Both the position numbers and the translations under genes were made by a program. The notes beneath the pieces are model-generated. The model made no database searches and had not been told where the DNA came from. It saw only the letters and a program-made list of their open reading frames with translations. 64,000 nucleotides of DNA from a virus (taxonomy: Duplodnaviria; Heunggongvirae; Uroviricota; Caudoviricetes). This document shows, in pieces, positions 2,302 through 37,642 of this stretch. The stretch lies in IMG/VR virus record IMGVR_UViG_2740892119_000002. One strand, written 5' to 3'. Within the stretch, counting starts at the first letter, position 1; each line of letters starts with the position of its first letter.

Positions 2302-2741
2302 TTGGCTGGGGTGTATGCGTTCTTGCGTTAGCTTTAGCCGATCGCTATTTGCTAAAACGCAAGGACATCACGCATTTAGAACTTGGTGATGTGGAAATTA
2401 AACCGGGTTTCATCCGGGTGCCGTTCAAATACCGGTCTAAATTCCCGTTTTTGCGCGGCGCAACGGTCAGATATTGGATCCGCGATGTTCAGAAGCCGAC
2501 GACAGTGATTGAAGGCGAACAACGTTGTTTGACGTCGGCTGAACAGGGCGAAAACAGTGAATGGTTGTACATACCCACTGAATATATGGGTAAAGGAGAG
2601 CGACTGTGGCATTTCAACGTCATGGTTACGCATGGCGACTCGTTCATTAACCCGTTGTATCGGATTTTCCCTGTTACTCAGCAAATCCGCAGAAGTTACG
2701 TAATAAATCTCGCACAGGATGTGTCAGATGACGAAAAATAA
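2298..2741 (+). CDS. lydB: LydB-like lysis regulator (antiholin)
   Basis: 147 aa, translationally coupled to lydA; position as in P1. Confidence 0.55.
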   Translation: MIGWGVCVLALALADRYLLKRKDITHLELGDVEIKPGFIRVPFKYRSKFPFLRGATVRYWIRDVQKPTTVIEGEQRCLTSAEQGENSEWLYIPTEYMGKGERLWHFNVMVTHGDSFINPLYRIFPVTQQIRRSYVINLAQDVSDDEK

Positions 2742-3330
2742 GTATGCAACGGTCGATTTTGACCAGGTTAATGAAAAGGGGCTGAAATCCCTTATCGCGG
2801 CGATCAATAAAACCGGTGTTACGGTAATTGAGGTTGACTCCAGCAACCGCGCAACAACGAAAGATGGCGTTAAAGTTAAAACCGCAAAGCTGGTTCTTAA
2901 CGACGGACAAATTCTTGCCATACAGGTAAACGATACTGGCGATATATCGTCTGTGAGGCTGAATGGAAAAGCTATTCCTAACGCTCAGTCGCCGGATATC
3001 AAGACGCTTGGTACCGTCATGGGGCAAGCGGCCCGCAAAAACTCCGCAAAATTCCAGAAATCACTGATCGCCAAAGCGAAACGTGTTGCCAATCCGGTAG
3101 ACAAGAAACCGGCAGTAAAATCCAACTTTCAGCGCCTGCAAGAGGCAAAACAGCGGAATGCTCAGGTGGTTGCCGCTTATAAATCAGCGCAGAACTCGGT
3201 GTCTTTCAATCAACAGCAGATCACTGATTTGCGGGCGAAGCTGGATAAGGAGACAGGCCGACTCAATAACGAAAAGGCCCGAAATGGCGAACTCAAACGC
3301 CGTCTTAAGCAACTGAAAGCAGGAAATTAA
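2728..3330 (+). CDS. hdf: Hdf-like Dar-system protein
   Basis: Coiled-coil-rich ORF directly ahead of darA; AGGA before the ATG at 2728 (track start 2719 is an alternative ATG). Confidence 0.55.
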   Translation: MTKNKYATVDFDQVNEKGLKSLIAAINKTGVTVIEVDSSNRATTKDGVKVKTAKLVLNDGQILAIQVNDTGDISSVRLNGKAIPNAQSPDIKTLGTVMGQAARKNSAKFQKSLIAKAKRVANPVDKKPAVKSNFQRLQEAKQRNAQVVAAYKSAQNSVSFNQQQITDLRAKLDKETGRLNNEKARNGELKRRLKQLKAGN

Positions 3331-3331
3331 C

Positions 3332-5251
3332 ATGGAACAGTTCAATATCAATAAAGGGGTGACGATCAAGCCTGGGCTTGACGTGCTTCCCCCGCCAGTG
3401 ACTGATGATGAATATCGCGCATTAATGGCCGGTGAGGACCGCTATCTGATGACGGAATCCAACACCCTGGAGGAAATCGAGGCTACGTTCTTCTATGACA
3501 CGCCGATCCACTGGTGTGCTACGGATTTACTGGAGGCGATTAGTTCTACTCGTTTGCAGTTACACCGGACCATGCAGGCATTTGTCCGGGCATTGAACCA
3601 GAAGCTGAATGGTACCGGAATCTCTGCGGGGAGTGATAAAACGGGGGATGTGGCCCAGAGCGGCGCGCGCGCGATCGGCGGCGCTGAAATTGGCCGGGCA
3701 CGTAACGTTAACGGGCTGCCGGTCTTGCCAGCCATTATTCCGCTCAGTGATGGTCAGACTATCAGCATTCTGTTTCATAGCCCGACAGCGGAAAACCGGA
3801 TCACCAATAGCGATACGCTGGTTGCTTTCCAGTTCTTACTGAATAAAAAAGACGTTACTCACACCGTTGCTCCGATGAGTGGACGTGATATGACGCTGGC
3901 GCAGGTCACCATGAAACTTGCCAACCTTGCAGAGAAAAACTCGGCAAAATTCCAGCGTGCGCAGAAGAAGAAAAAAGCCCTTGTTGATGAAATAACCCAA
4001 CTACAGGCTGACAGTGACCAGAAAGAGGATGCCATGAGCGACCTCGCGGATCAGGTGGCAGCGGTAGAAGGGCAGAAGGCAGATCTGGAGCAGAAAATTA
4101 ACGCTGTTGCATCGGAAGCGGATTCTCTTTATGAAGAGAATGAGCGTTTGCAGACGGAGATTGATCAGCTCAATCGCACTGGTGGGCGCGATACCATTGC
4201 TCCAGCGGGGATGACTGGTGGGCACTCTCGCGCGCTGACGGATCGCCTTGCCAGTATCAAAAATCGTATGCATATGGACGGGGAAGTGACGCTCAGTAAT
4301 GGTGCATCAATGAAGCAATTCATTGGGGGCGGCGAAGGGTATATCCAGTTAACCGATCCGGATGGCAGCGTATACATGATCAAGGCTAAATCCATACAGG
4401 GTGTGGACATGGCAGATGCGATCGGCAAGCTGTTTAAAGCCTATAAAGCGGGTAATGTATCGGAATACCTGGTCCAACCAGAAGAACATAAACCGGAAAA
4501 CGTCGAACCTGAACCAGCGGAGGATGCCGGTAGCTCTTCGCCTGAACCAGAAGTCTCTGTAGGTGCATATCGATATGCCCTGCAAATGCGTCCGGCGGCC
4601 CCTGGCGCAATACCTGAAGGTAACAAAGCAATTCTGCCGCGCCCTGATGAAGGTGACCCGTATTATGAATATGCACGCTACGGCATTGCTACTTACGATA
4701 CCCCGCTTTCTGATCAGCAAATGAATGAGTACGACCTGAAGTTATTGCCTCGCGAGGATTCTTTCGACTTCCTGGCGAAGACACTTACTAATGGTCCGTT
4801 TGGCAAATATGCACAAAAAGCTCTGGAGCTGGCCACCAGCTCACCAGACGAGTTCCGCGTAATGCTGAAAACTCAGTTTCAAAAAACTTTCCCCAATATT
4901 GCGTTTCCTGGGGGCGCTGGCACCGAGAAAATGGTGCAGAGCATGATCAATGCATTGCAGGCCGAAGTCGGTGAGATTCCTCAGCCAGAACCGGCCCCGG
5001 CACAGCCTGATGAAACGGTTAGCGAAGCAGATGCAGAGGCTAATAAAGCCATTGAATATCTCAATAACGTGATGGATATACAAAGCACTGACATGGCGGA
5101 GATCCGTAACGCCCGGGGCAATGTCCGGGAAGCGATTGCAGCCCTTCAGGCTGCCGGACGTTTTGAGGAAAACGAAGAGCTGGTTAACGGCGCAGCTCGC
5201 CACCTGGCTGATCTGTTGGTAGCAATCCAGAAAGCGGGGGTAGCGGCATGA
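3332..5251 (+). CDS. darA: DarA antirestriction/capsid protein
   Basis: 639 aa, the size and position of P1 DarA as recalled; AGGAAA SD. Confidence 0.8.
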   Translation: MEQFNINKGVTIKPGLDVLPPPVTDDEYRALMAGEDRYLMTESNTLEEIEATFFYDTPIHWCATDLLEAISSTRLQLHRTMQAFVRALNQKLNGTGISAGSDKTGDVAQSGARAIGGAEIGRARNVNGLPVLPAIIPLSDGQTISILFHSPTAENRITNSDTLVAFQFLLNKKDVTHTVAPMSGRDMTLAQVTMKLANLAEKNSAKFQRAQKKKKALVDEITQLQADSDQKEDAMSDLADQVAAVEGQKADLEQKINAVASEADSLYEENERLQTEIDQLNRTGGRDTIAPAGMTGGHSRALTDRLASIKNRMHMDGEVTLSNGASMKQFIGGGEGYIQLTDPDGSVYMIKAKSIQGVDMADAIGKLFKAYKAGNVSEYLVQPEEHKPENVEPEPAEDAGSSSPEPEVSVGAYRYALQMRPAAPGAIPEGNKAILPRPDEGDPYYEYARYGIATYDTPLSDQQMNEYDLKLLPREDSFDFLAKTLTNGPFGKYAQKALELATSSPDEFRVMLKTQFQKTFPNIAFPGGAGTEKMVQSMINALQAEVGEIPQPEPAPAQPDETVSEADAEANKAIEYLNNVMDIQSTDMAEIRNARGNVREAIAALQAAGRFEENEELVNGAARHLADLLVAIQKAGVAA

Positions 5252-5625: not shown

Positions 5626-8613
5626 ATGAGCTTAAGCGATCAGGTGGTAATGGCCACCAGCATAGAAACGCTGATCGAGCTGCTAAAGAACCTGCCCGAT
5701 TATGGGCGGGTTTCGTATGTGGTGACAGCGAAGGGAGACGAGGTAAAAACAGCGTTTGATATCGTCGATGCCTCAGCTCTTTTGGTATCCAATACTCTGG
5801 ATGGGAAAATTAATCCTGACTATCCCCAGGAACTTCAGCCGCGCGACCGGACCCGCGCATCCAGCCTTCTTCAGGTTAACCAGATATCCAAAGATTTGCG
5901 GCCAGCTCAGCTTACTGATTCCGGTTTATCCAGCCATGGTGCGCCAATAATTGGTGAGGACAATGCCGTTGAGTCAGGTAATGGGCGGACCATGGGGATC
6001 ATTAAAGCCTATCAGGACGGTAATGCGGATCGGTATCGGGAGTACCTGATTGAACATGCGACCGAATTCGGCATACGGCCTGAAAAGGTTGAATCAATGA
6101 CGGCTCCGGTACTGGTGCGCCGCCGGTTAACGAAGGTTGACCGTGTTCAGTTTGCCAAGGACTCAAATATTTCTGATCTCCAGGAAATGGCAGCCAGTGA
6201 AAAGGCTTTTGTTGATGCCGACAGCATAACACCGGCGATGATGGCGTTGTTTAACCCGTCAGAAAGTGGAGATCTGCTTAGCCGCAGTAATGACGCGTTT
6301 ATTCGCGGATTTATGACGCAAGTTGGTGCCACACAGGCGGCTGGCCTTGTAACTGAAGATGGGCGACCAACACGGCAACTTGTAGACCGTATACAAAACG
6401 CGATCTTTGCCAAGGCATATAAGGATGCGCGCCTGGTAAGGATGGTTGCAGAAGAACCTGATCCGGATATGCGTAATGTTCTGACGGCGCTTAATGCGGC
6501 AGCCAATGATTTTGTCCAGATGCAGGCTTTATCAGGAGAAGCGCACAAGCAGGCTGTGACAACTATTGTTGATGGCATTGAGACAGCGGATAGCCTCGAT
6601 AAAAAGGCGCTGGCGGCATTGAAAGATGCGGTAGACCTGGTAAGGCAATCGAAGGAGTCAGGCCAGCATATTACCGATGTTATTGCTCAGGGGGATATGT
6701 TCAGCGAAACGGCCCCGGAAGTGAAAGCACTCGCGTTGTTCATCGTCGCGAATAACCGTAGCGCGAAGCGTATGGCCACCGCCTTTAAGTTGATGGCTCA
6801 ACGTATCAATGATGAGTTACAGCACCAGGGCCAGGCGCTGGGGGATATGTTTGGCGGCGGCGATGTGTCGTTACAGGATATCCTTCGCCAGGTGTCTCAG
6901 GAACTGGAAAACGAAGGCATGCAAGGGATATCCGGCGGTCTTTTCGAGTCCGTTTCCGGCGGTAGTTACAACGGTGTTGCTCCGTATACCAGTTTGCTAT
7001 TACATCGGGCATCCGGCATCAAAGACATTATTCATCTGATCAGGCTGCTTTCCCGCACAGATCCCCAGGATGAACAGCTTGTACAAGTGCTTGCGCATTT
7101 TGTTCGAATGCCTGTTGCCGACGTGAAAAAATGGTGCCGATTATTCGGTATCAGCAATTCGTTACTTCGCGGCTTGTTAAATCACGCATCCTCCCTTGGG
7201 CGCGATGGCTTTGACGAGATAGCGCAGGCGATAAAAAACGGAGATATGCCACCAGCTATTGACTGGTTTTCCATTCGCCCAACCAGGGTGAAAGCATTCC
7301 TTAGCGCGGCGCATTCGGCATCACCATTGGCAGAAATGGTTCAGAGGTTGTCGCTCATATTCACAGACCATACCGCGTTGGGTGATCTGACTCTGGACGA
7401 GATGAAAGAAGCCTCCATTCAGTGGGCCGATCAACAAAATGAGGTTAACTCAGACTTCTTGCCAGCATTCAGGAAGGCCGTTAGTAAAGCGGATGATGCC
7501 CGTGGAATTCTGAAGGCATTTAAGGCATTGCAAAGTCGTGTTAATAAACATGTCGGTGATATCGATGGGGTAACGGCGGAAGGCCGGGATATTCTTAAAG
7601 AGCACGGCATAACGCCAGAGTTTATTGATGAGATCAGGACTGATATGCAGCGTGAGGTCGTATCGTCCCTGCAAATCGTAGCCAGAGCGTTGGCGGATGC
7701 TAATCCGAAGAGTGCGGCCATTGTTAACCGGGTTATTGGTGATATTGAAGCATCGGAGGGCATGGGGGCGCTGAAACTCTTCCTTTCGCGAGCGTTTAAT
7801 CCTAACGGCAATATTCTCCCTGGCATTATTGGTGAGGCTAAAAAGTATGTCAGTGAAGAAGAACTTGAGCAGCTTGACCAACTACTTAAGCGATTCTCAT
7901 ATAACCCGCAGATACGCTGGCAAATGAATCAGCGAAGTATGGGTTCGGTCCACGAGAAAGTGTTATCTGCCATGAACAGTGCGATCGCAAACTCATCCGT
8001 ATCTGAAGAAAAAGCTCTTGAGTGGGCCGACTCTTTTATCACAGAAGAAGTGGAAGAAGTCCGCGCTGGACAGAATGGTGGGATAGACCTGCGCAAGGAA
8101 CTTGCTGATATTTATCGCCTGACCGGCGGGAAAATATCGACCTTATCAAAGGTAGTTCACCACCAGGGAAGGGCATATGCAAATCTTAATGGTGTTGTTG
8201 CTGTCAATTTGAACGATGAAAATGCAAGTGCACTGTGGCACGAGCTGGGTCATCATCTTGAGTACAGTAACCCTGGTTTGTTAGAGAAAGCCCGGTCATT
8301 CCTGAAGGCCAATGTTGAAGGGGATAAGCCATCTTTCGTCAATATCGGTGGGCGTGGCAAGCCTGAATGGTGCTTCAGATCTCGATTGAGTAATATTTAT
8401 ATGGCGAAGGTATACCCGCCAGCCTCAGTAAGTAACACCGGGAAAATTCGGCAGAAATCACCGACTATTTCCAAAACGTCAGCAACGGAAGTATTCTCTA
8501 TGGCTCTTCAGTTGTATCATGACAAAGAGGCCGCTGCCGCATCACTGATGAATGGTGACGGATTGCTGGAACTGTTATTAGGTGTGGCAAAGGAGCTAAA
8601 TAATGCAGATTAA
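5626..8613 (+). CDS. ddrB: DdrB-like large Dar-system protein
   Basis: 995 aa; position after ddrA as in the P1 darA operon. Confidence 0.75.
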   Translation: MSLSDQVVMATSIETLIELLKNLPDYGRVSYVVTAKGDEVKTAFDIVDASALLVSNTLDGKINPDYPQELQPRDRTRASSLLQVNQISKDLRPAQLTDSGLSSHGAPIIGEDNAVESGNGRTMGIIKAYQDGNADRYREYLIEHATEFGIRPEKVESMTAPVLVRRRLTKVDRVQFAKDSNISDLQEMAASEKAFVDADSITPAMMALFNPSESGDLLSRSNDAFIRGFMTQVGATQAAGLVTEDGRPTRQLVDRIQNAIFAKAYKDARLVRMVAEEPDPDMRNVLTALNAAANDFVQMQALSGEAHKQAVTTIVDGIETADSLDKKALAALKDAVDLVRQSKESGQHITDVIAQGDMFSETAPEVKALALFIVANNRSAKRMATAFKLMAQRINDELQHQGQALGDMFGGGDVSLQDILRQVSQELENEGMQGISGGLFESVSGGSYNGVAPYTSLLLHRASGIKDIIHLIRLLSRTDPQDEQLVQVLAHFVRMPVADVKKWCRLFGISNSLLRGLLNHASSLGRDGFDEIAQAIKNGDMPPAIDWFSIRPTRVKAFLSAAHSASPLAEMVQRLSLIFTDHTALGDLTLDEMKEASIQWADQQNEVNSDFLPAFRKAVSKADDARGILKAFKALQSRVNKHVGDIDGVTAEGRDILKEHGITPEFIDEIRTDMQREVVSSLQIVARALADANPKSAAIVNRVIGDIEASEGMGALKLFLSRAFNPNGNILPGIIGEAKKYVSEEELEQLDQLLKRFSYNPQIRWQMNQRSMGSVHEKVLSAMNSAIANSSVSEEKALEWADSFITEEVEEVRAGQNGGIDLRKELADIYRLTGGKISTLSKVVHHQGRAYANLNGVVAVNLNDENASALWHELGHHLEYSNPGLLEKARSFLKANVEGDKPSFVNIGGRGKPEWCFRSRLSNIYMAKVYPPASVSNTGKIRQKSPTISKTSATEVFSMALQLYHDKEAAAASLMNGDGLLELLLGVAKELNNAD

Positions 8614-8914
8614 AATCGCAGCGCCATTAGGTGGAGATGCCATTATCGAATTTGATGATAATGAAGAAGTTTCCGGGCGTTTAAGCATTATCTCCGGTGA
8701 CATTACCGAGGACATGATCGCTGAAGCCATAGCTGGGGCAAATCCCAATAGCTATATGGGATTCGTTAACACCCTTGATGCTCCCGCAAGTGATGTTCTC
8801 CGAACGCTGCATCTTTACGCTGGCTGGTTTGTTGATTGGCCAGCAGTAGATGGTGGCGATGAGGACGACGACGACGATGATTTTGGTGATCATGTAGACC
8901 AGATCGTATATTGA
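8603..8914 (+). CDS. Hypothetical acidic protein
   Basis: 103 aa with a DGGDEDDDDDDF tail; ATG overlaps the ddrB 3' end. Confidence 0.5.
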   Translation: MQIKIAAPLGGDAIIEFDDNEEVSGRLSIISGDITEDMIAEAIAGANPNSYMGFVNTLDAPASDVLRTLHLYAGWFVDWPAVDGGDEDDDDDDFGDHVDQIVY

Positions 8915-21685: not shown

Positions 21686-22126
21686 ATGGCCACACTATCT
21701 GATACAATAAAACCGAATAAAACATATCTTGAGGCGGTACTCCGTACAGCGTTGTTAGGAAAGACAGAAGACGAATACGTTGATTTCTTCCTGTCAGGGC
21801 TACGCGGGCGATTACTGAAAAATCCCCGCCTGTACCGCAGCTATGGTCCATACTGGCCGGAAATTAAAAAATTATTACTGGAGCGCGGTTATGGTAATTT
21901 CGGTCGTCTCGTTGACCGTGACGTTCGCAAAATTTACCGTTATGACCGCCCGGCGCTGACGCTCATAGCTGCGACGCTCTACAGCCAGGAGCGTTTTGAT
22001 AATGGTCAGATATACTCAGCCTGGCATTTACTGCCAGTACCTGAAGAGGTTGACGACCAGGACTATGAGTTTGAGTCTTACGATTTGGAAGTTGAAGCCT
22101 TAGCACAGGCTGGAGAGAAAACTTGA
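21686..22126 (+). CDS. ulx: Ulx-like Dar-associated protein
   Basis: 146 aa directly after darB. Confidence 0.55.
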   Translation: MATLSDTIKPNKTYLEAVLRTALLGKTEDEYVDFFLSGLRGRLLKNPRLYRSYGPYWPEIKKLLLERGYGNFGRLVDRDVRKIYRYDRPALTLIAATLYSQERFDNGQIYSAWHLLPVPEEVDDQDYEFESYDLEVEALAQAGEKT

Positions 22127-22371
22127 AAAAGCGATACTACACAGTAAAGCATGGGACGCTACGAGCATTACAAGAGTTTGCTGACAAGCACAACGTTGAG
22201 GTGCGCAGGGAAGGGGGAAGTAAAGCTCTGCGCATGTACCGCCCGGACGGGAAATGGCGGACGGTCGTCGATTTCAAAACTAACAGTGTTCCCCAAGGTG
22301 TCCGCGATCGGGCATTCGAAGAATGGGAGCAGATCATCATAGATAACGCATTGCTTCTGAATGCTGATTAA
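22123..22371 (+). CDS. lxc: Lxc (C1 co-repressor, Bof)-like protein
   Basis: 82 aa; TTG start overlapping the ulx stop, with GGAGAG SD. Confidence 0.6.
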   Translation: MKKRYYTVKHGTLRALQEFADKHNVEVRREGGSKALRMYRPDGKWRTVVDFKTNSVPQGVRDRAFEEWEQIIIDNALLLNAD

Positions 22372-22380
22372 TAATCATTT

Positions 22381-22402
22381 AAAGCCCATATGATATGGGC
22401 TT
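22381..22402 (+). terminator. Stem-loop (perfect 8-bp inverted repeat) at the left island boundary
   Basis: GCCCATAT-g-ATATGGGC right after the lxc stop; no clean T run. Confidence 0.3.
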
Positions 22403-22423
22403 AAACAACAGGATCGATATACA

Positions 22424-23464
22424 GTGTTAGTTAAATATATAGGCGAGAGTTATATGGATAAACCTTGGCCGGGCATGCACATTAGAACATCTTGTCTGGA
22501 GGATGGTTTCTTTAGAGCAACGCAACCAAAGTATCTTAATGATCCGTCGAGTGAGTCGCGACTTCTTCCATTTTTTAATAAATTTTCACCAGCCGATTAC
22601 GCATGGGCTAGAAATGAATTTAAGAAAATGCAACGAGATCCATCTTATGTCCCATCTATACAAGAGTTAGAGTATTATTTAAAACCTTGCGGGAAACGAT
22701 ACGGAGAGGATTTTCCACACTTGTTAATCAATGAAGGTTTTACCTCAATGGATTCATATGATGAATCTAAACTCCAAGAAATAGTAACGTACCTTAACGA
22801 TTATTTAGTAGAAGCCGTAAGCTGTCATCTTGGTGTGTTCTCTCTATCAAAAAGTGATTGCAATCTACACATGTGGACTCATTATGCATCGATAGGAAAG
22901 GGGTTTGCTGTAGTTTTCGATGAAACACACGATTTTTTCAAAATATATCGGCCGTGTGATGTTAGTTATAATCCAGAAGATAGAGCATCTGTAACCTATT
23001 ATAAAGGCGCTGTGCGATTTAATGGCTATCCTGCGCCATCGAGGAATATAGATATAAAGAATAAAGATAATACATTGCATGGAATCTTAAATCGAGATTC
23101 AGTTCGCGAGCTTTTTATTAATAGGCTTCTTTATACAAAAGGTGAAGAGTGGCTTCCTGAAAATGAAAGTAGAATTATTTTTCCATTGGCTGATTGCGAG
23201 AGAAAAATAGGAAGCATTGTCTCTCCATCGATTGATGATTGCCTATTAAATGAGTATCCTGATGTTTTTCATGACTATCATGAAATTAACTTAAAGAAAA
23301 TTCCTTTTTCTGCATTCAAGCAAATTACCTTAGGGTATAACATGACTGAAAAAGATAAAAATATAATTTTAGATAAAGTTAGTTCGAATAAAGAATTGTC
23401 TCACCTCAACGTATTACAATCAAAACTTGATATATATGGAAAGGTTGTGGTTAATCCCATGTAA
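22424..23464 (+). CDS. DUF2971-like protein of unknown function (cargo gene in the res/mod-equivalent locus)
   Basis: 346 aa; YLNDP and FSLS..MWTHYA..GKGFAVVFD motifs; markedly AT-rich versus flanks; GTG at 22424 or ATG at 22454 as start. Confidence 0.8.
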   Translation: MLVKYIGESYMDKPWPGMHIRTSCLEDGFFRATQPKYLNDPSSESRLLPFFNKFSPADYAWARNEFKKMQRDPSYVPSIQELEYYLKPCGKRYGEDFPHLLINEGFTSMDSYDESKLQEIVTYLNDYLVEAVSCHLGVFSLSKSDCNLHMWTHYASIGKGFAVVFDETHDFFKIYRPCDVSYNPEDRASVTYYKGAVRFNGYPAPSRNIDIKNKDNTLHGILNRDSVRELFINRLLYTKGEEWLPENESRIIFPLADCERKIGSIVSPSIDDCLLNEYPDVFHDYHEINLKKIPFSAFKQITLGYNMTEKDKNIILDKVSSNKELSHLNVLQSKLDIYGKVVVNPM

Positions 23465-23496
23465 TAATACGCTTATGTCTAAACTTCATGATAAAT

Positions 23497-23520
23497 ACCT
23501 TCCTTAACTTAGGAAGGTGA
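23497..23520. terminator. Stem-loop between convergent genes
   Basis: ACCTTCC-TTAACTTA-GGAAGGT; no T run. Confidence 0.3.
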
Positions 23521-23561
23521 GTTGTGGGTTTACGCAGAAAGTAACAAATAACCTTCGTAGG

Positions 23562-24203
23562 TTATAGAATATTATTCTTTCCGGTGAGTATTCCTTGAGG
23601 AACTCTAGCGCATCCCATAATTTGAGTTTTCTTGATGATGTTTATATATGACGCTATCAGCGATGAGTCATCACGACTATCCACTTCACAAGCCATTGCC
23701 CTGATGTAGTCTGCGCTGGCAACGTTGTTGTATTCCGTCGCAAAGCAACAGAGTAACGTCAGAACATGCTCTGTCGTTATTTCGCTCCAGTTGATGTTGA
23801 AAAATTCATCGCCTTTTTTATCGTGTTCGGAATCGAAGATGCTTTGGTGGAGGATGTATTTGCCGGATTCCTTGCGCGGTAACTTGATTGCTTTCTGGCG
23901 TTCCAGCTCCTTATAAATCTGCATGGCCTCAATTAGTACCGGCCTGCCGTTCATGAAGGGATCGCGCAACCTTACACGCTGGCCAACTCGACCAGTAATA
24001 AAGCTGTTTTCCTCTTCCACCAGCACGATAAAACCCTTTTCCTCTTTTTCTCGCAATTCGCGCAGCAGCTGGAGTTCCATATCGCGGCGGCGTTCAGGGT
24101 AGCTGGTCCGCTCAGCCATTATCAGCTCGTTGTTGATCCATGCAGCAGTCATTGACGCCGGTTTACCGACGCTCATCGAAACAACGCATATTTTCTTATC
24201 CAT
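23562..24203 (-). CDS. Hypothetical protein (positional equivalent of P1 mat)
   Basis: 213 aa from the ATG with AGGGG SD (track start is a rare CTG); 3' end is AT-rich. Confidence 0.55.
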   Translation of the reverse strand: MDKKICVVSMSVGKPASMTAAWINNELIMAERTSYPERRRDMELQLLRELREKEEKGFIVLVEEENSFITGRVGQRVRLRDPFMNGRPVLIEAMQIYKELERQKAIKLPRKESGKYILHQSIFDSEHDKKGDEFFNINWSEITTEHVLTLLCCFATEYNNVASADYIRAMACEVDSRDDSSLIASYINIIKKTQIMGCARVPQGILTGKNNIL

Positions 24204-24391
24204 AGCGCCCCTACAAAAAAGAAAAGCCACCAGCGGCGGCTTAGCAATACAACTGAAGGTAGCGCCCGGTACTCAGACTGTGCCGTCCATGGAATATTTG
24301 AAAAGGGATCCATCCGTACCGGGCATGTGATGATTCTGACTGAAGTCACTTGTCAGTTGTCAATTATTTCAGATTAAAAATAATATATTTA

Positions 24392-35645: not shown

Positions 35646-36574
35646 ACTTCACCCTCGCTTGTATCGCCAGCATCCACCAGCGGCAATAAAGCCCTGGCCA
35701 TCTTATGAACCAATAGTGCATCAATAATGCCAAGCGTATGCCCCGGCTTAATGTTTAATGCCGCCTCAAGGTGACACCTTTCCAGGCCACTTTTCTCGGC
35801 TTGTTTATGATGATCTGGTGTAATAACGTCGCCCAAAACACGGCTAATTCTTTCTCGTAATTGCTGGGTGCCAGCACACTTGATCGCTGTATCGTGGAGA
35901 CGGTTAACCAGTTCGCGATAAACATGCGGCTTAATTCGGATACGTTCACCGGTGACGCCCTTTCCTGGTGCTGGCACCGAACTATCCGGAATATCCGGAT
36001 AGTTGCCAGCCTCGTAAGCTACCCGCAGCCAGTGCATGAATGTTTCAGTGGACACACAACCACAGTCCACATCGATTTTCCCGCGTTGCTGTTCCAGCCA
36101 TTGCCCAAAATCCAACCTGTAAGTCTTACTTTCAAGTTCATCACCATTGAACTCGACTTTCTGCGACGCTATGAGAGCTGATTCGTATTGTTCGCGAGTG
36201 ACAACTGACTGGTATTCATCGCTATCAAGGTCACCAATTGGAAGCTCAATCTCACAACAAAAATTGCGCCCAAAGAAAGTGTCTTTTTTGTGGTCTGAGC
36301 CAAAAGCAAAAGTCGCGCATGGTGCCATTAAATTGACACTGGGTAGGTAACAATAACTCATTCCATCAGGCCACCCACCGCACTTAGGCAGTTCCTTCAC
36401 TAACAAGTCGATAAACTTCATTTTTTTATCATCTTTGCAAGCCGCCAAAGCCATTTGGGCAAGTGCCAATACTTCATCTGCCGTATATCCAGCACCGTGA
36501 CCATACATTTCGATACGGGAAATAATCTCTGATATACGCTCTTCAGTGATTCTGGTCATTTCTTTTTGCGCCAT
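35642..36574 (-). CDS. Hypothetical protein
   Basis: 310 aa ORF with ATG start. Confidence 0.55.
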   Translation of the reverse strand: MAQKEMTRITEERISEIISRIEMYGHGAGYTADEVLALAQMALAACKDDKKMKFIDLLVKELPKCGGWPDGMSYCYLPSVNLMAPCATFAFGSDHKKDTFFGRNFCCEIELPIGDLDSDEYQSVVTREQYESALIASQKVEFNGDELESKTYRLDFGQWLEQQRGKIDVDCGCVSTETFMHWLRVAYEAGNYPDIPDSSVPAPGKGVTGERIRIKPHVYRELVNRLHDTAIKCAGTQQLRERISRVLGDVITPDHHKQAEKSGLERCHLEAALNIKPGHTLGIIDALLVHKMARALLPLVDAGDTSEGEV

Positions 36575-36930
36575 TTCTTTTCACATTCCTTAGTCCATTT
36601 TTCAATGTTCATTTTGGCAATATCAGTCATTCCATCACCTAAGAAATACTTTCTCCGGTACGTCTTGCACTTAAACCACACTACAACAGCCACCAGCCAG
36701 AAAATAAAAGGCCATACAGCAATACCAACTCCAGCCGCGATAAAGCCCAATAGCCATAAATGAAGCTCTCCAACTTCTGTTTGCGGCAATATTCTTAAAG
36801 AATTAAGCAGCAGACTGAAGGAATAGTCGTATGCATTGGCGGTATAAGACATGCAATCCATATAATTAAAGTCATAGCCTGCGGCTGCCGCCCATAATGG
36901 GCGGTCAAGAAAATGTTTTAGTGTCATCAT
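36556..36930 (-). CDS. Hypothetical membrane protein
   Basis: 124 aa; hydrophobic LWLLGFIAAGVGIAVWPFIFWLVAVVVWF; basic C-terminus. Confidence 0.55.
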   Translation of the reverse strand: MMTLKHFLDRPLWAAAAGYDFNYMDCMSYTANAYDYSFSLLLNSLRILPQTEVGELHLWLLGFIAAGVGIAVWPFIFWLVAVVVWFKCKTYRRKYFLGDGMTDIAKMNIEKWTKECEKKWRKKK

Positions 36931-36936
36931 ATAAAT

Positions 36937-37230
36937 TTAAGGTTCAGACCAGTTATCTTCAATAGCAATGCTTAATCTTTGTAGCCATTCTGCTAATTTC
37001 AGCATTGCTTCTCTTTCGCTTAAACCACGAGGAAAATCATCAAGCGAAATTGTTGGCTTGAAGCCCCCGTAATTATCTATTTCAACAGTCAGATTTTGCT
37101 CCAGCACGGTATTCCTTACGCGGCTATTGTGCCGAAGCAAATATACTGAACGTGATTTATTGGTTTTATGGTCAAACTGATATTCGGTAAGTATCATCTG
37201 GCTTTTGCCATGACTATTACCTCTCCACAT
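36937..37230 (-). CDS. Hypothetical protein
   Basis: Start placed at the ATG after GAGGT; the track's TTG-initiated N-terminus overlaps an upstream micro-ORF. Confidence 0.5.
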   Translation of the reverse strand: MWRGNSHGKSQMILTEYQFDHKTNKSRSVYLLRHNSRVRNTVLEQNLTVEIDNYGGFKPTISLDDFPRGLSEREAMLKLAEWLQRLSIAIEDNWSEP

Positions 37231-37237
37231 ACTTACC

Positions 37238-37360
37238 TCACTTAATAAAACAACTCCATGCGTAGTTGATGATTTTTTCCCACGTAATATAAATCTGCAC
37301 TCCGGCAGTAAAACCAAAGCCAACAATTGCTGAAAAAATCAAAACATTTACTTTTGACAT
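37238..37360 (-). CDS. Micro-ORF, 40-aa hydrophobic peptide
   Basis: MSKVNVLIFSAIVGFGFTAGVQIYITWEKIINYAWSCFIK; GAGAG SD; stop abuts the next gene's SD. Confidence 0.4.
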   Translation of the reverse strand: MSKVNVLIFSAIVGFGFTAGVQIYITWEKIINYAWSCFIK

Positions 37361-37408
37361 TATAAATTTTCTCTCGGTGTCGTAGGTGATAGCACCATAA
37401 TTGATAAT

Positions 37409-37642
37409 TTAGTGAGTTAGCAGTTCCATTTTTTGGATGATTTCCGCATGAGCATCATCGTTATCAACACTTAACTCGTTTAATGCCTCTCGCACTACAT
37501 CAACTTCTTCTGGTTGGAAGAAGTCATCTCGGTAGTCACCAAATAGAACCGAAACAAGCCTGCCACCAGCAACATCAAGATTGGCGCTAACAGGTGGCTC
37601 TTTGCCATCCTCAAATTCGACTACAAAAGTTATTTTTCCCAT
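37409..37642 (-). CDS. Hypothetical acidic protein
   Basis: Start at the ATG (MGKITFVVEF...) after GGTGG; track start is a TTG. Confidence 0.5.
   Translation of the reverse strand: MGKITFVVEFEDGKEPPVSANLDVAGGRLVSVLFGDYRDDFFQPEEVDVVREALNELSVDNDDAHAEIIQKMELLTH

Follow-up and report, generated by a model that had tools for sequence, protein, structure and literature searches.

A DUF2971-family gene with a predicted ADP-ribosyltransferase fold as exchangeable cargo between lxc and mat of a P1-like phage-plasmid, and its candidacy as a single-gene phage defence

The virus record IMGVR_UViG_2740892119_000002 (Caudoviricetes) was analysed over a stretch of 64,000 nucleotides (nt), referred to here as the window, with attention to the interval between the genes lxc and mat. 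Sequence comparison identifies the DNA as a P1-like phage-plasmid and this interval as an allele of a slot, already known, where cargo is exchanged. The interval holds a single open reading frame (ORF, 22424..23464, + strand) that begins with GTG and encodes a protein of 346 amino acids (aa) belonging to the DUF2971 family. According to its predicted structure the protein is a divergent enzyme with an ADP-ribosyltransferase (ART) fold, and the ARTs that it most resembles in shape are DarT and Tpt1, which act on nucleic acids. We hold with moderate confidence that it is a prophage-encoded, single-polypeptide anti-phage defence, working by abortive infection or superinfection exclusion as an ART dependent on nicotinamide adenine dinucleotide (NAD+).

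The gene order in the region is darB-ulx-lxc-ORF-mat (convergent)-ref-cre, with ref identified by a Pfam RecA_dep_nuc match (2e-51). No ORF of the size of Res or Mod is present in 22372-23561, and DUF2971 is the only domain detected there. A first-pass annotation of the DNA had described this arrangement of one 346-aa ORF without Res or Mod, and ORF calling and the PGAP annotation bear it out. Plasmid NZ_CP135714.1 matches the region with 100% identity, and PGAP places the ORF at identical coordinates there. The MLVKY N-terminus is kept in aligned homologues at 36-53% identity, and the GTG start is supported because this N-terminus is conserved in such distant homologues. In two RefSeq plasmids (L027 and L029) the PGAP coding sequence begins 30 nt downstream, at an ATG; both nonetheless retain an intact GTG start and the MLVKY N-terminus seen across the family. 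The longest stop-free run of the cassette that carries the ORF is 356 codons. Among 2000 dinucleotide-preserving shuffles of the cassette the mean was 79 codons and the maximum 176, so that none of the 2000 reached 356 and a chance origin of the ORF is very unlikely in such AT-rich DNA.

Profile searches place the protein in the DUF2971 family, as the first-pass annotation had proposed from its sequence signature. The Pfam DUF2971 model (PF11185) is matched with 28.3 bits against a gathering score of 22, over residues 150-251 and all profile positions (1-89/89), and the motifs YLNDP, FSLS, MWTHYA and GKGFAVVFD are all found in the protein. All 40 aligned homologues (40/40) match DUF2971 and no other Pfam model. 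Additionally, four hidden Markov models (HMMs) of PDC-S31, a single-gene phage-defence candidate in PADLOC-DB 2.0 (2023), match the protein with E-values of 4e-16, 2.2e-14, 1.1e-10 and 4.9e-06; these matches, judged by E-value, are partial and cover residues ~120-324. No other PADLOC-DB model matches. The resemblance to PDC-S31 thus named lies in the single gene, the HMM matches and the relation to a full-length PDC-S31 protein of Klebsiella, and the difference in the length, as 346 aa exceeds the 208-273 positions of the profiles. The Klebsiella protein, encoded by a phage-plasmid, is a 252-aa DUF2971 protein that matches PDC-S31 over its full length (6.6e-34), aligns to the 346-aa protein with 98% probability in hhalign and has the same conserved residues. 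It is carried on non-mobilizable plasmids of ~107-115 kb in Klebsiella, Enterobacter and Salmonella. In the carrier that was inspected (NZ_CP056436.1; L030, 6001-6759) the gene is flanked by an AAA ATPase gene on one side and replication genes on the other, and this plasmid looks like an SSU5-like phage-plasmid because tail, DnaB-like helicase and primase genes are present.

The wider family is very large. A profile search of 1.84 billion cluster representatives returned 8512 relatives at E<=1e-3 and 39 at E<=1e-30, and since so few reach the stricter threshold the clade of ~350-aa proteins is a small branch of it. The nearest relatives outside P1-like elements are ~50% identical and come from Klebsiella, Serratia, Vibrio, Shewanella, Salmonella and Enterobacter. 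Among the PHROGs the only match is phrog_1762, of unknown function, and NCBIfam holds no family for the protein. A profile search of the Protein Data Bank (PDB) sequences gave one chance-level match only (2qp2, E 0.68) and no DarT.

The structure was predicted with AlphaFold2 from a 40-sequence alignment, with a mean pLDDT (predicted local distance difference test) of 92 and a pTM (predicted template modelling score) of 0.86, and the ART core fold is present in the model. Its structural neighbours and their scores are as follows.

M. tuberculosis DarT, 7.1
Yeast Tpt1, 6.9
Thermus DarT, 6.8
Thermosipho DarTG, 6.1
E. coli DarT1, 5.6
Salmonella NAD-binding effector, 5.6
Rhs toxin TreX, 5.0
Two more Tpt1 structures, 4.8 and 4.6

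The motifs of ARTs, namely R/H on beta1, S-x-S or Y after beta2, and [Q/E]-x-E at beta5, are likewise found at the places in the secondary structure where they are expected. F30-R31 are located on strand 29-31, S140-L141-S142 end strand 136-142, M150-W151...Y154 lie in the helix that follows that strand, and E246-x-E248-x-R250 open strand 248-254. In a wider alignment R31, Y154, E246, E248 and R250 are invariant down to 24% identity. A bioinformatic study had assigned DUF2971 to the ARTs, with DarT and AbiGi as the closest members and a conserved Tyr and ExE (PMC12522546), and this published assignment agrees with the fold and residues predicted here. The model also shows a large insert of helices (56-135) and, at the C-terminus, an additional alpha/beta region (255-346). 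The latter is found in distant relatives of ~300 aa as well, with P294 and G304 conserved, and it therefore belongs to the architecture of the family. Variation is greatest in segments 205-224 and 255-285.

The likeness to DarT, a single-stranded DNA thymidine ADP-ribosyltransferase, is at the level of the fold only. The DarT models of PADLOC and Pfam gave no match at E<=10, and the 346-aa protein differs from DarT in its helical insert, its C-terminal region and the Arg of motif I. An assignment to DarTG was rejected because neither a DarT sequence match nor a DarG was found, and a toxin-antitoxin pair was rejected because the cassette lacks a second gene.

The DUF2971 gene is under purifying selection. 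None of six P1-type alleles, 6-15 nucleotides apart from each other, is disrupted, and the GTG is kept in each; their pairwise ratios of nonsynonymous to synonymous substitution (dN/dS) are 0.00-0.25. The cassette DNA was found in 90 PLSDB plasmids, near full length in 88, from Escherichia, Salmonella, Shigella and Klebsiella; it is present in 63 of 5426 complete E. coli genomes, nearly always on a plasmid, and the whole region is present in 85 of the 704 P1-like plasmids that match the flanks (~12%). In the phage collection it was found in two records, MH422554.1 and MH445380.1. The 346-aa ORF is without a listed feature under the match in both of these records, and the annotation table of MH422554.1 (locus L001, 3273-4462) confirms that it is unannotated there.

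These data bear on whether the ORF is a functionless passenger, decaying or silenced, that hitch-hikes in a recombination hot-spot. DNA of 35% GC (guanine plus cytosine) is likely to be silenced by H-NS in E. coli, which together with the lack of a dedicated promoter and the missing annotation in the two phage GenBank records would suit a passenger. The selection data contradict this: all six sampled alleles (6/6) are intact at the low dN/dS given above, the cassette has spread to four genera, and the catalytic residues are invariant across a large family. We regard a passenger as highly improbable.

Homologues of the gene recur without a partner in moron sites and mobile elements. The Salmonella and Enterobacter homologues stand alone between gpS and gpV of P2-like prophages, and the Serratia homologue is at the end of a P2/HP1-like prophage, adjoining smpB. 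The Klebsiella homologue lies in a small island beside a gene for a 509-aa AAA_15/AAA_21 ATPase, the Vibrio homologue is on a conjugative plasmid where it adjoins a PIN_12 gene and nSTAND3/AAA genes, and the V. breoganii homologue is at the end of an integrase-bearing element; the context of the Shewanella homologue is uninformative. No conserved partner gene was found across the seven homologue contexts, which fit accessory or defence cargo of mobile elements. The homologues between gpS and gpV are 47-48% identical and on the opposite strand (L011, L012, L020 and L021, 8001-9050), and P2-like prophages are a second phage lineage with a DUF2971 gene as a moron.

The gene belongs to a foreign unit with sharp borders. 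In BLAST comparisons with P1 and vB_EcoM-673R5 the homology breakpoints fall at 22371/22369, which is the lxc stop codon, and at 23680 inside mat, and the foreign unit is therefore 22372..23679. The GC content of the ORF is 35.1% (27.7% at third codon positions, GC3) and that of the cassette 35.2%; the corresponding values are 48.5% in the window, 52.2% in darB and 49.8% in lxc. A windowed scan ranked the cassette as the minimum among all 1308-bp segments of the 64 kb (mean 0.485, sd 0.031), so that the AT-richness estimated by hand in the first-pass annotation is confirmed by computation. The horizontal acquisition proposed there is likewise upheld, as the break in composition coincides with the homology breakpoints 22371 and 23680. 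The features of the region, in window coordinates, are listed below.

22123..22371, + strand: lxc, backbone; 97% identical to P1 lxc; its stop codon marks exactly where the variable slot is bounded on the left
22372..23679, no strand: exchangeable AT-rich cassette of 1308 bp, made up of a hairpin, the DUF2971 gene, a second hairpin and an allele-specific mat 3' end
22382..22402, + strand: hairpin 1; 9-bp stem (22382-22390/22394-22402), 3-nt loop, -12.1 kcal/mol, z -3.3
22410..22413, + strand: putative Shine-Dalgarno-like AGGA, 10 nt upstream of the GTG, as read from the sequence
22424..23464, + strand: DUF2971/PDC-S31-family gene with a predicted ART fold; candidate catalytic residues R31, S140-L-S142, Y154 and E246-x-E248
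23496..23519, no strand: hairpin 2, candidate bidirectional terminator; 9-bp stem (23496-23504/23511-23519) between the convergent DUF2971 gene and mat
23562..23679, - strand: 3' end of mat (~39 final codons), specific to the allele and moving together with the cassette; GC 0.364 versus 0.488 in the rest of mat
23680..24203, - strand: conserved backbone part of mat, which bounds the slot on the right; identity to P1 and 673R5 is 95-98% from 23680 onward

The two flanking hairpins of the first-pass annotation are both real and lie within 1 nt of where they had been placed, but their stems are 9 bp long and not 8. No U-tract follows hairpin 1 on the + strand. Homology to P1 and to the other cassette types stops at 22369-22371, and hairpin 1 is assigned by sequence comparison to the cassette and not to the backbone, because other cassette types carry unrelated GC-rich hairpins at the same position. 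Each cassette type opens directly after the lxc stop with its own hairpin of this kind (L002 and L013-L018 compared with the window); the sequences are AAAGCCCATATGATATGGGCTT in this cassette, TTTTGCCCGGAATTACCGGGCAAAA in the RelA/SpoT type and GCCCGGTCTATCGCCGGGC in the empty allele, and in P1 the mod promoters take the place of the hairpin. The function of the hairpin after lxc, perhaps as an lxc terminator, appears to be conserved though the sequence differs. Hairpin 2 lies within a larger fold (-27.2 kcal/mol, z -3.6, + strand) and is flagged as terminator-like on the - strand.

The PGAP coding sequence of mat corresponds to 23562..24203 of the window. The C-terminal ~40 aa of Mat are homologous between cassette types but specific to each, and the tail reads ...CEVDSRDDSSLIASYINIIKKTQIMGCARVPQGILTGKNNIL here versus the common ...GEVEARQEPSLLSPLINIIRGTQTLAQKQVPKGVLTGKGNYL. 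The tail has the low GC of the cargo too, which places the right-hand junction of recombination within mat, a gene that looks essential. NCBIfam holds no family for Mat. A possible, though doubtful, reading is that the protein is a relative of DarT that does without DarG, in which one polypeptide would sense the phage and ADP-ribosylate DNA or RNA while being restrained by its own insert or C-terminal region, and that the slot is a plug-in site for cassettes which would each bring their own terminator hairpin and Mat tail; this would hint at a defined exchange mechanism or at a functional coupling of cargo and Mat. Elsewhere in the window, ~36200-37550 is the stretch with the second-lowest GC (~0.40 over 1.3 kb). 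On its minus strand lie ORFs of 310, 124, 129 and 83 aa, and the stretch may have been acquired as well or may be a further one of the variation (RD) hot-spots on record.

The slot itself has a history of exchange. In P1 (NC_005856; L003) the lxc-mat interval is occupied by mod, which carries an IS5, and res, as the first-pass annotation had stated. Venturini et al. (2019) counted the res-mod interval, under the name RD-1, among five hot-spots of variation in P1-like plasmids, which are associated with AT-rich loci (PMC6906374), and the hotspot was therefore already known. An evenly spaced sample of 60 records was drawn from the 704 P1-like plasmids, with the following slot contents.

DUF2971: 8/60
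SIR2: 10/60
RelA/SpoT: 4/60
Empty: 4/60
GNAT: 2/60
PIN: 1/60
Other small inserts: 3/60
Flanks too distant to join, or partial flank match: 28/60

Examples of the other alleles, with positions in the respective locus, are given below.

L014: empty, 39 bp from lxc to mat
L013, 714-2018: SIR2, 434 aa; matches the PDC-S25 and ThsA-like models of PADLOC
L015, 734-1684: PIN, 316 aa; matches PDC-S34 of PADLOC
L016, 755-1363: GNAT, 202 aa; no PADLOC match
L017 (NZ_AP024522.1), 6778-8766: RelA/SpoT-type gene with the IS5-like ISKpn26 beside it
L018, 5904-8812: helix-turn-helix (HTH) gene and EAL gene with an IS3 between them
L002 (673R5), 2335-3434: RelA/SpoT; matches PDC-S33 of PADLOC

The idea that P1 relatives swap cargo here thus holds: the slot carries type III restriction-modification (R-M), SIR2, RelA/SpoT, PIN, GNAT or HTH plus EAL genes, or nothing. 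Insertion sequences can disrupt or extend slot alleles (L017, L018), a parallel to the IS5 of P1 mod. The annotation of 673R5 shows two ORFs, of 182 and 180 aa, for the RelA/SpoT gene; they match the N-half and the C-half of PDC-S33, respectively, and the gene may be split or frameshifted. The proposal of defence-type cargo stands in so far as the protein matches PDC-S31 and three other alleles match PADLOC candidates; for this allele we infer a defence function.

Known systems help to frame that function. The EcoP1I type III R-M system (P1 mod/res) takes the identical position between lxc and mat, but it has no homology to the cassette, measures ~6.3 kb against 1.3 kb, consists of two genes and works by a different mechanism. 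Phage SJ46 has a RelA/SpoT gene in the lxc-mat slot and encodes the experimentally validated CapRel-SJ46 defence (PMC9712102). As a prophage-encoded abortive-infection defence made of a single polypeptide (PMC9712102) and located in the same slot, CapRel-SJ46 offers a model for a one-gene sensor-plus-toxin, although the enzyme is unrelated, being a tRNA pyrophosphokinase and not an ART. CmdTAC is likewise an ART-based abortive defence acting on nucleic acid (an mRNA ADP-ribosyltransferase; PMC11618068), but it is a three-gene toxin-antitoxin-chaperone system as opposed to the single gene described here. A precedent within the family is Aristaios, a 316-aa Lactococcus DUF2971 protein from plasmid pUCCL641_199, which was shown to be an Abi-like (abortive infection-like) antiphage gene (PMC11381338). 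It is a single-gene system that impairs phage transcription (PMC11381338, PMC13064643), and it shares the DUF2971 domain, the predicted ART fold, the single gene and the carriage on a mobile element with the present protein; the host phylum differs, and a tblastn search (E<=10) gave no lactococcal plasmid match in a collection that may lack the Aristaios plasmid.

Two other enzymatic roles for an ART in this slot were weighed against these comparisons. In the first, the protein would defend by depleting NAD+, acting mainly as an NAD+ glycohydrolase after phage sensing in the manner of SIR2/TIR effectors and transferring no ADP-ribose to a specific macromolecule. Many ART-fold toxins have NADase activity, the slot often holds a SIR2-family gene that matches ThsA-like and PDC-S25 models, the catalytic ExE is intact and a single-gene system of this kind would need no specific target. 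The nearest structural neighbours, DarT and Tpt1, are however transferases that act on nucleic acids, and Aristaios is reported to hit phage transcription specifically. We consider NAD+ depletion unlikely. In the second, the ART would serve the phage-plasmid itself and give the host no protection, modifying a host protein or a rival defence protein for anti-defence or host takeover, as AcrIF11 or T4 Alt/ModA/ModB do. ARTs encoded by phages or plasmids can be anti-CRISPRs, as the AcrIF11 precedent shows (PMC12421852), and the gene lies near the anti-restriction genes darB and ulx. This role is nevertheless unlikely: the other slot alleles are of defence or toxin type with none known as anti-defence, homologues are also found in chromosomal islands and on a conjugative plasmid, the PADLOC family was drawn from defence-island association, and its sole tested member, Aristaios, defends.

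The 52 bp between lxc and the GTG start contain hairpin 1 and the AGGA. The total of promoter-like sites in the region is below shuffle expectation. The P1lxc (22050-22078) and P2lxc (21872-21900) promoters inside ulx are identical to those of P1, and the P2mod promoter of P1 is not kept, its -10 having been replaced at the junction. The transcript most plausibly originates at the lxc promoters, by read-through, because these are intact, no promoter was found upstream of the ORF and the P2mod -10 is lost. An antisense sigma-70-like site inside the ORF (22828->22800, - strand; ATGACA, 17 nt, AATAAT; 10/12 matches) was disregarded, as the site count is below shuffle expectation and the site is probably a by-product of AT-richness. 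An Rfam scan of 22000-24300 gave no RNA family beyond one chance-level match, so no known antitoxin RNA or riboswitch is present.

The same data speak to a role as a plasmid-addiction toxin, or as a secreted or contact-dependent effector, with no part in phage defence. A role in addiction has been considered in the literature for the res-mod pair that P1 carries here (PMC6906374). Effector roles have been proposed for a minority of DUF2971 proteins in pathogens, and ~18% of DUF2971 proteins are predicted effectors (PMC12522546). The cassette, however, has no antitoxin gene, antisense RNA family or secretion-related neighbour, its promoter-like sites are no commoner than in shuffles, and DUF2971 is the only domain of the protein. 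We judge this role to be very unlikely.

It is proposed, for the preferred role in phage defence, that the DUF2971 protein is made in the lysogen, probably via read-through from the lxc promoters, and would remain inactive until another phage infects. By analogy with CapRel, one may guess that autoinhibition is exerted by the helical insert (56-135) or the C-terminal region (255-346); autoinhibition by the C-terminal domain was shown for CapRel, while for the DUF2971 protein it is a speculation. Upon infection the protein would transfer ADP-ribose from NAD+ to a nucleic acid or to some part of the gene-expression machinery, and phage gene expression would stop as a result. A target of this kind is most likely because of the analogy with DarT, Tpt1 and CmdT and because of the transcription block reported for Aristaios.

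Several points weigh against this defence role. In the searched literature neither this allele nor any other enterobacterial DUF2971 protein has been the subject of an experiment; no paper in it mentions PDC-S31, and for PF11185 it is limited to two DUF2971 papers. PDC-S31 is a computational candidate and not a validated system. The cassette is one ORF with lxc and mat as neighbours and has no antitoxin or macrodomain (DarG) partner that could control a potentially toxic enzyme, and the promoter scan found no + strand sigma-70-like promoter directly upstream of the ORF. Additionally, S140 of the putative motif II varies (S/C/T) in the wider family, and the candidate active site is assigned by position in the sequence and conservation.

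The first-pass annotation had called the cargo undescribed, and this does not hold. RefSeq/PGAP names a DUF2971 domain-containing protein in ~90 plasmids and the family is in PADLOC; the validation of Aristaios (PMC11381338), the ART prediction (PMC12522546) and the RD-1 slot (PMC6906374) have all been published. The family and the insertion hotspot are both on record, the gene does not represent a new kind of system, and no new principle is revealed by the finding. If defence were confirmed, an enterobacterial DUF2971/PDC-S31 member would for the first time have a known function, in the tractable setting of P1, E. coli and coliphages, and this would give a handle on a family of >8,000 sequence clusters. 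An ART would then be the fourth mechanistic class in the hotspot beside type III R-M, CapRel and SIR2. Clinical and livestock E. coli and Salmonella commonly carry P1-like phage-plasmids, and cargo that is swapped in this slot would therefore affect the phage susceptibility of these bacteria.

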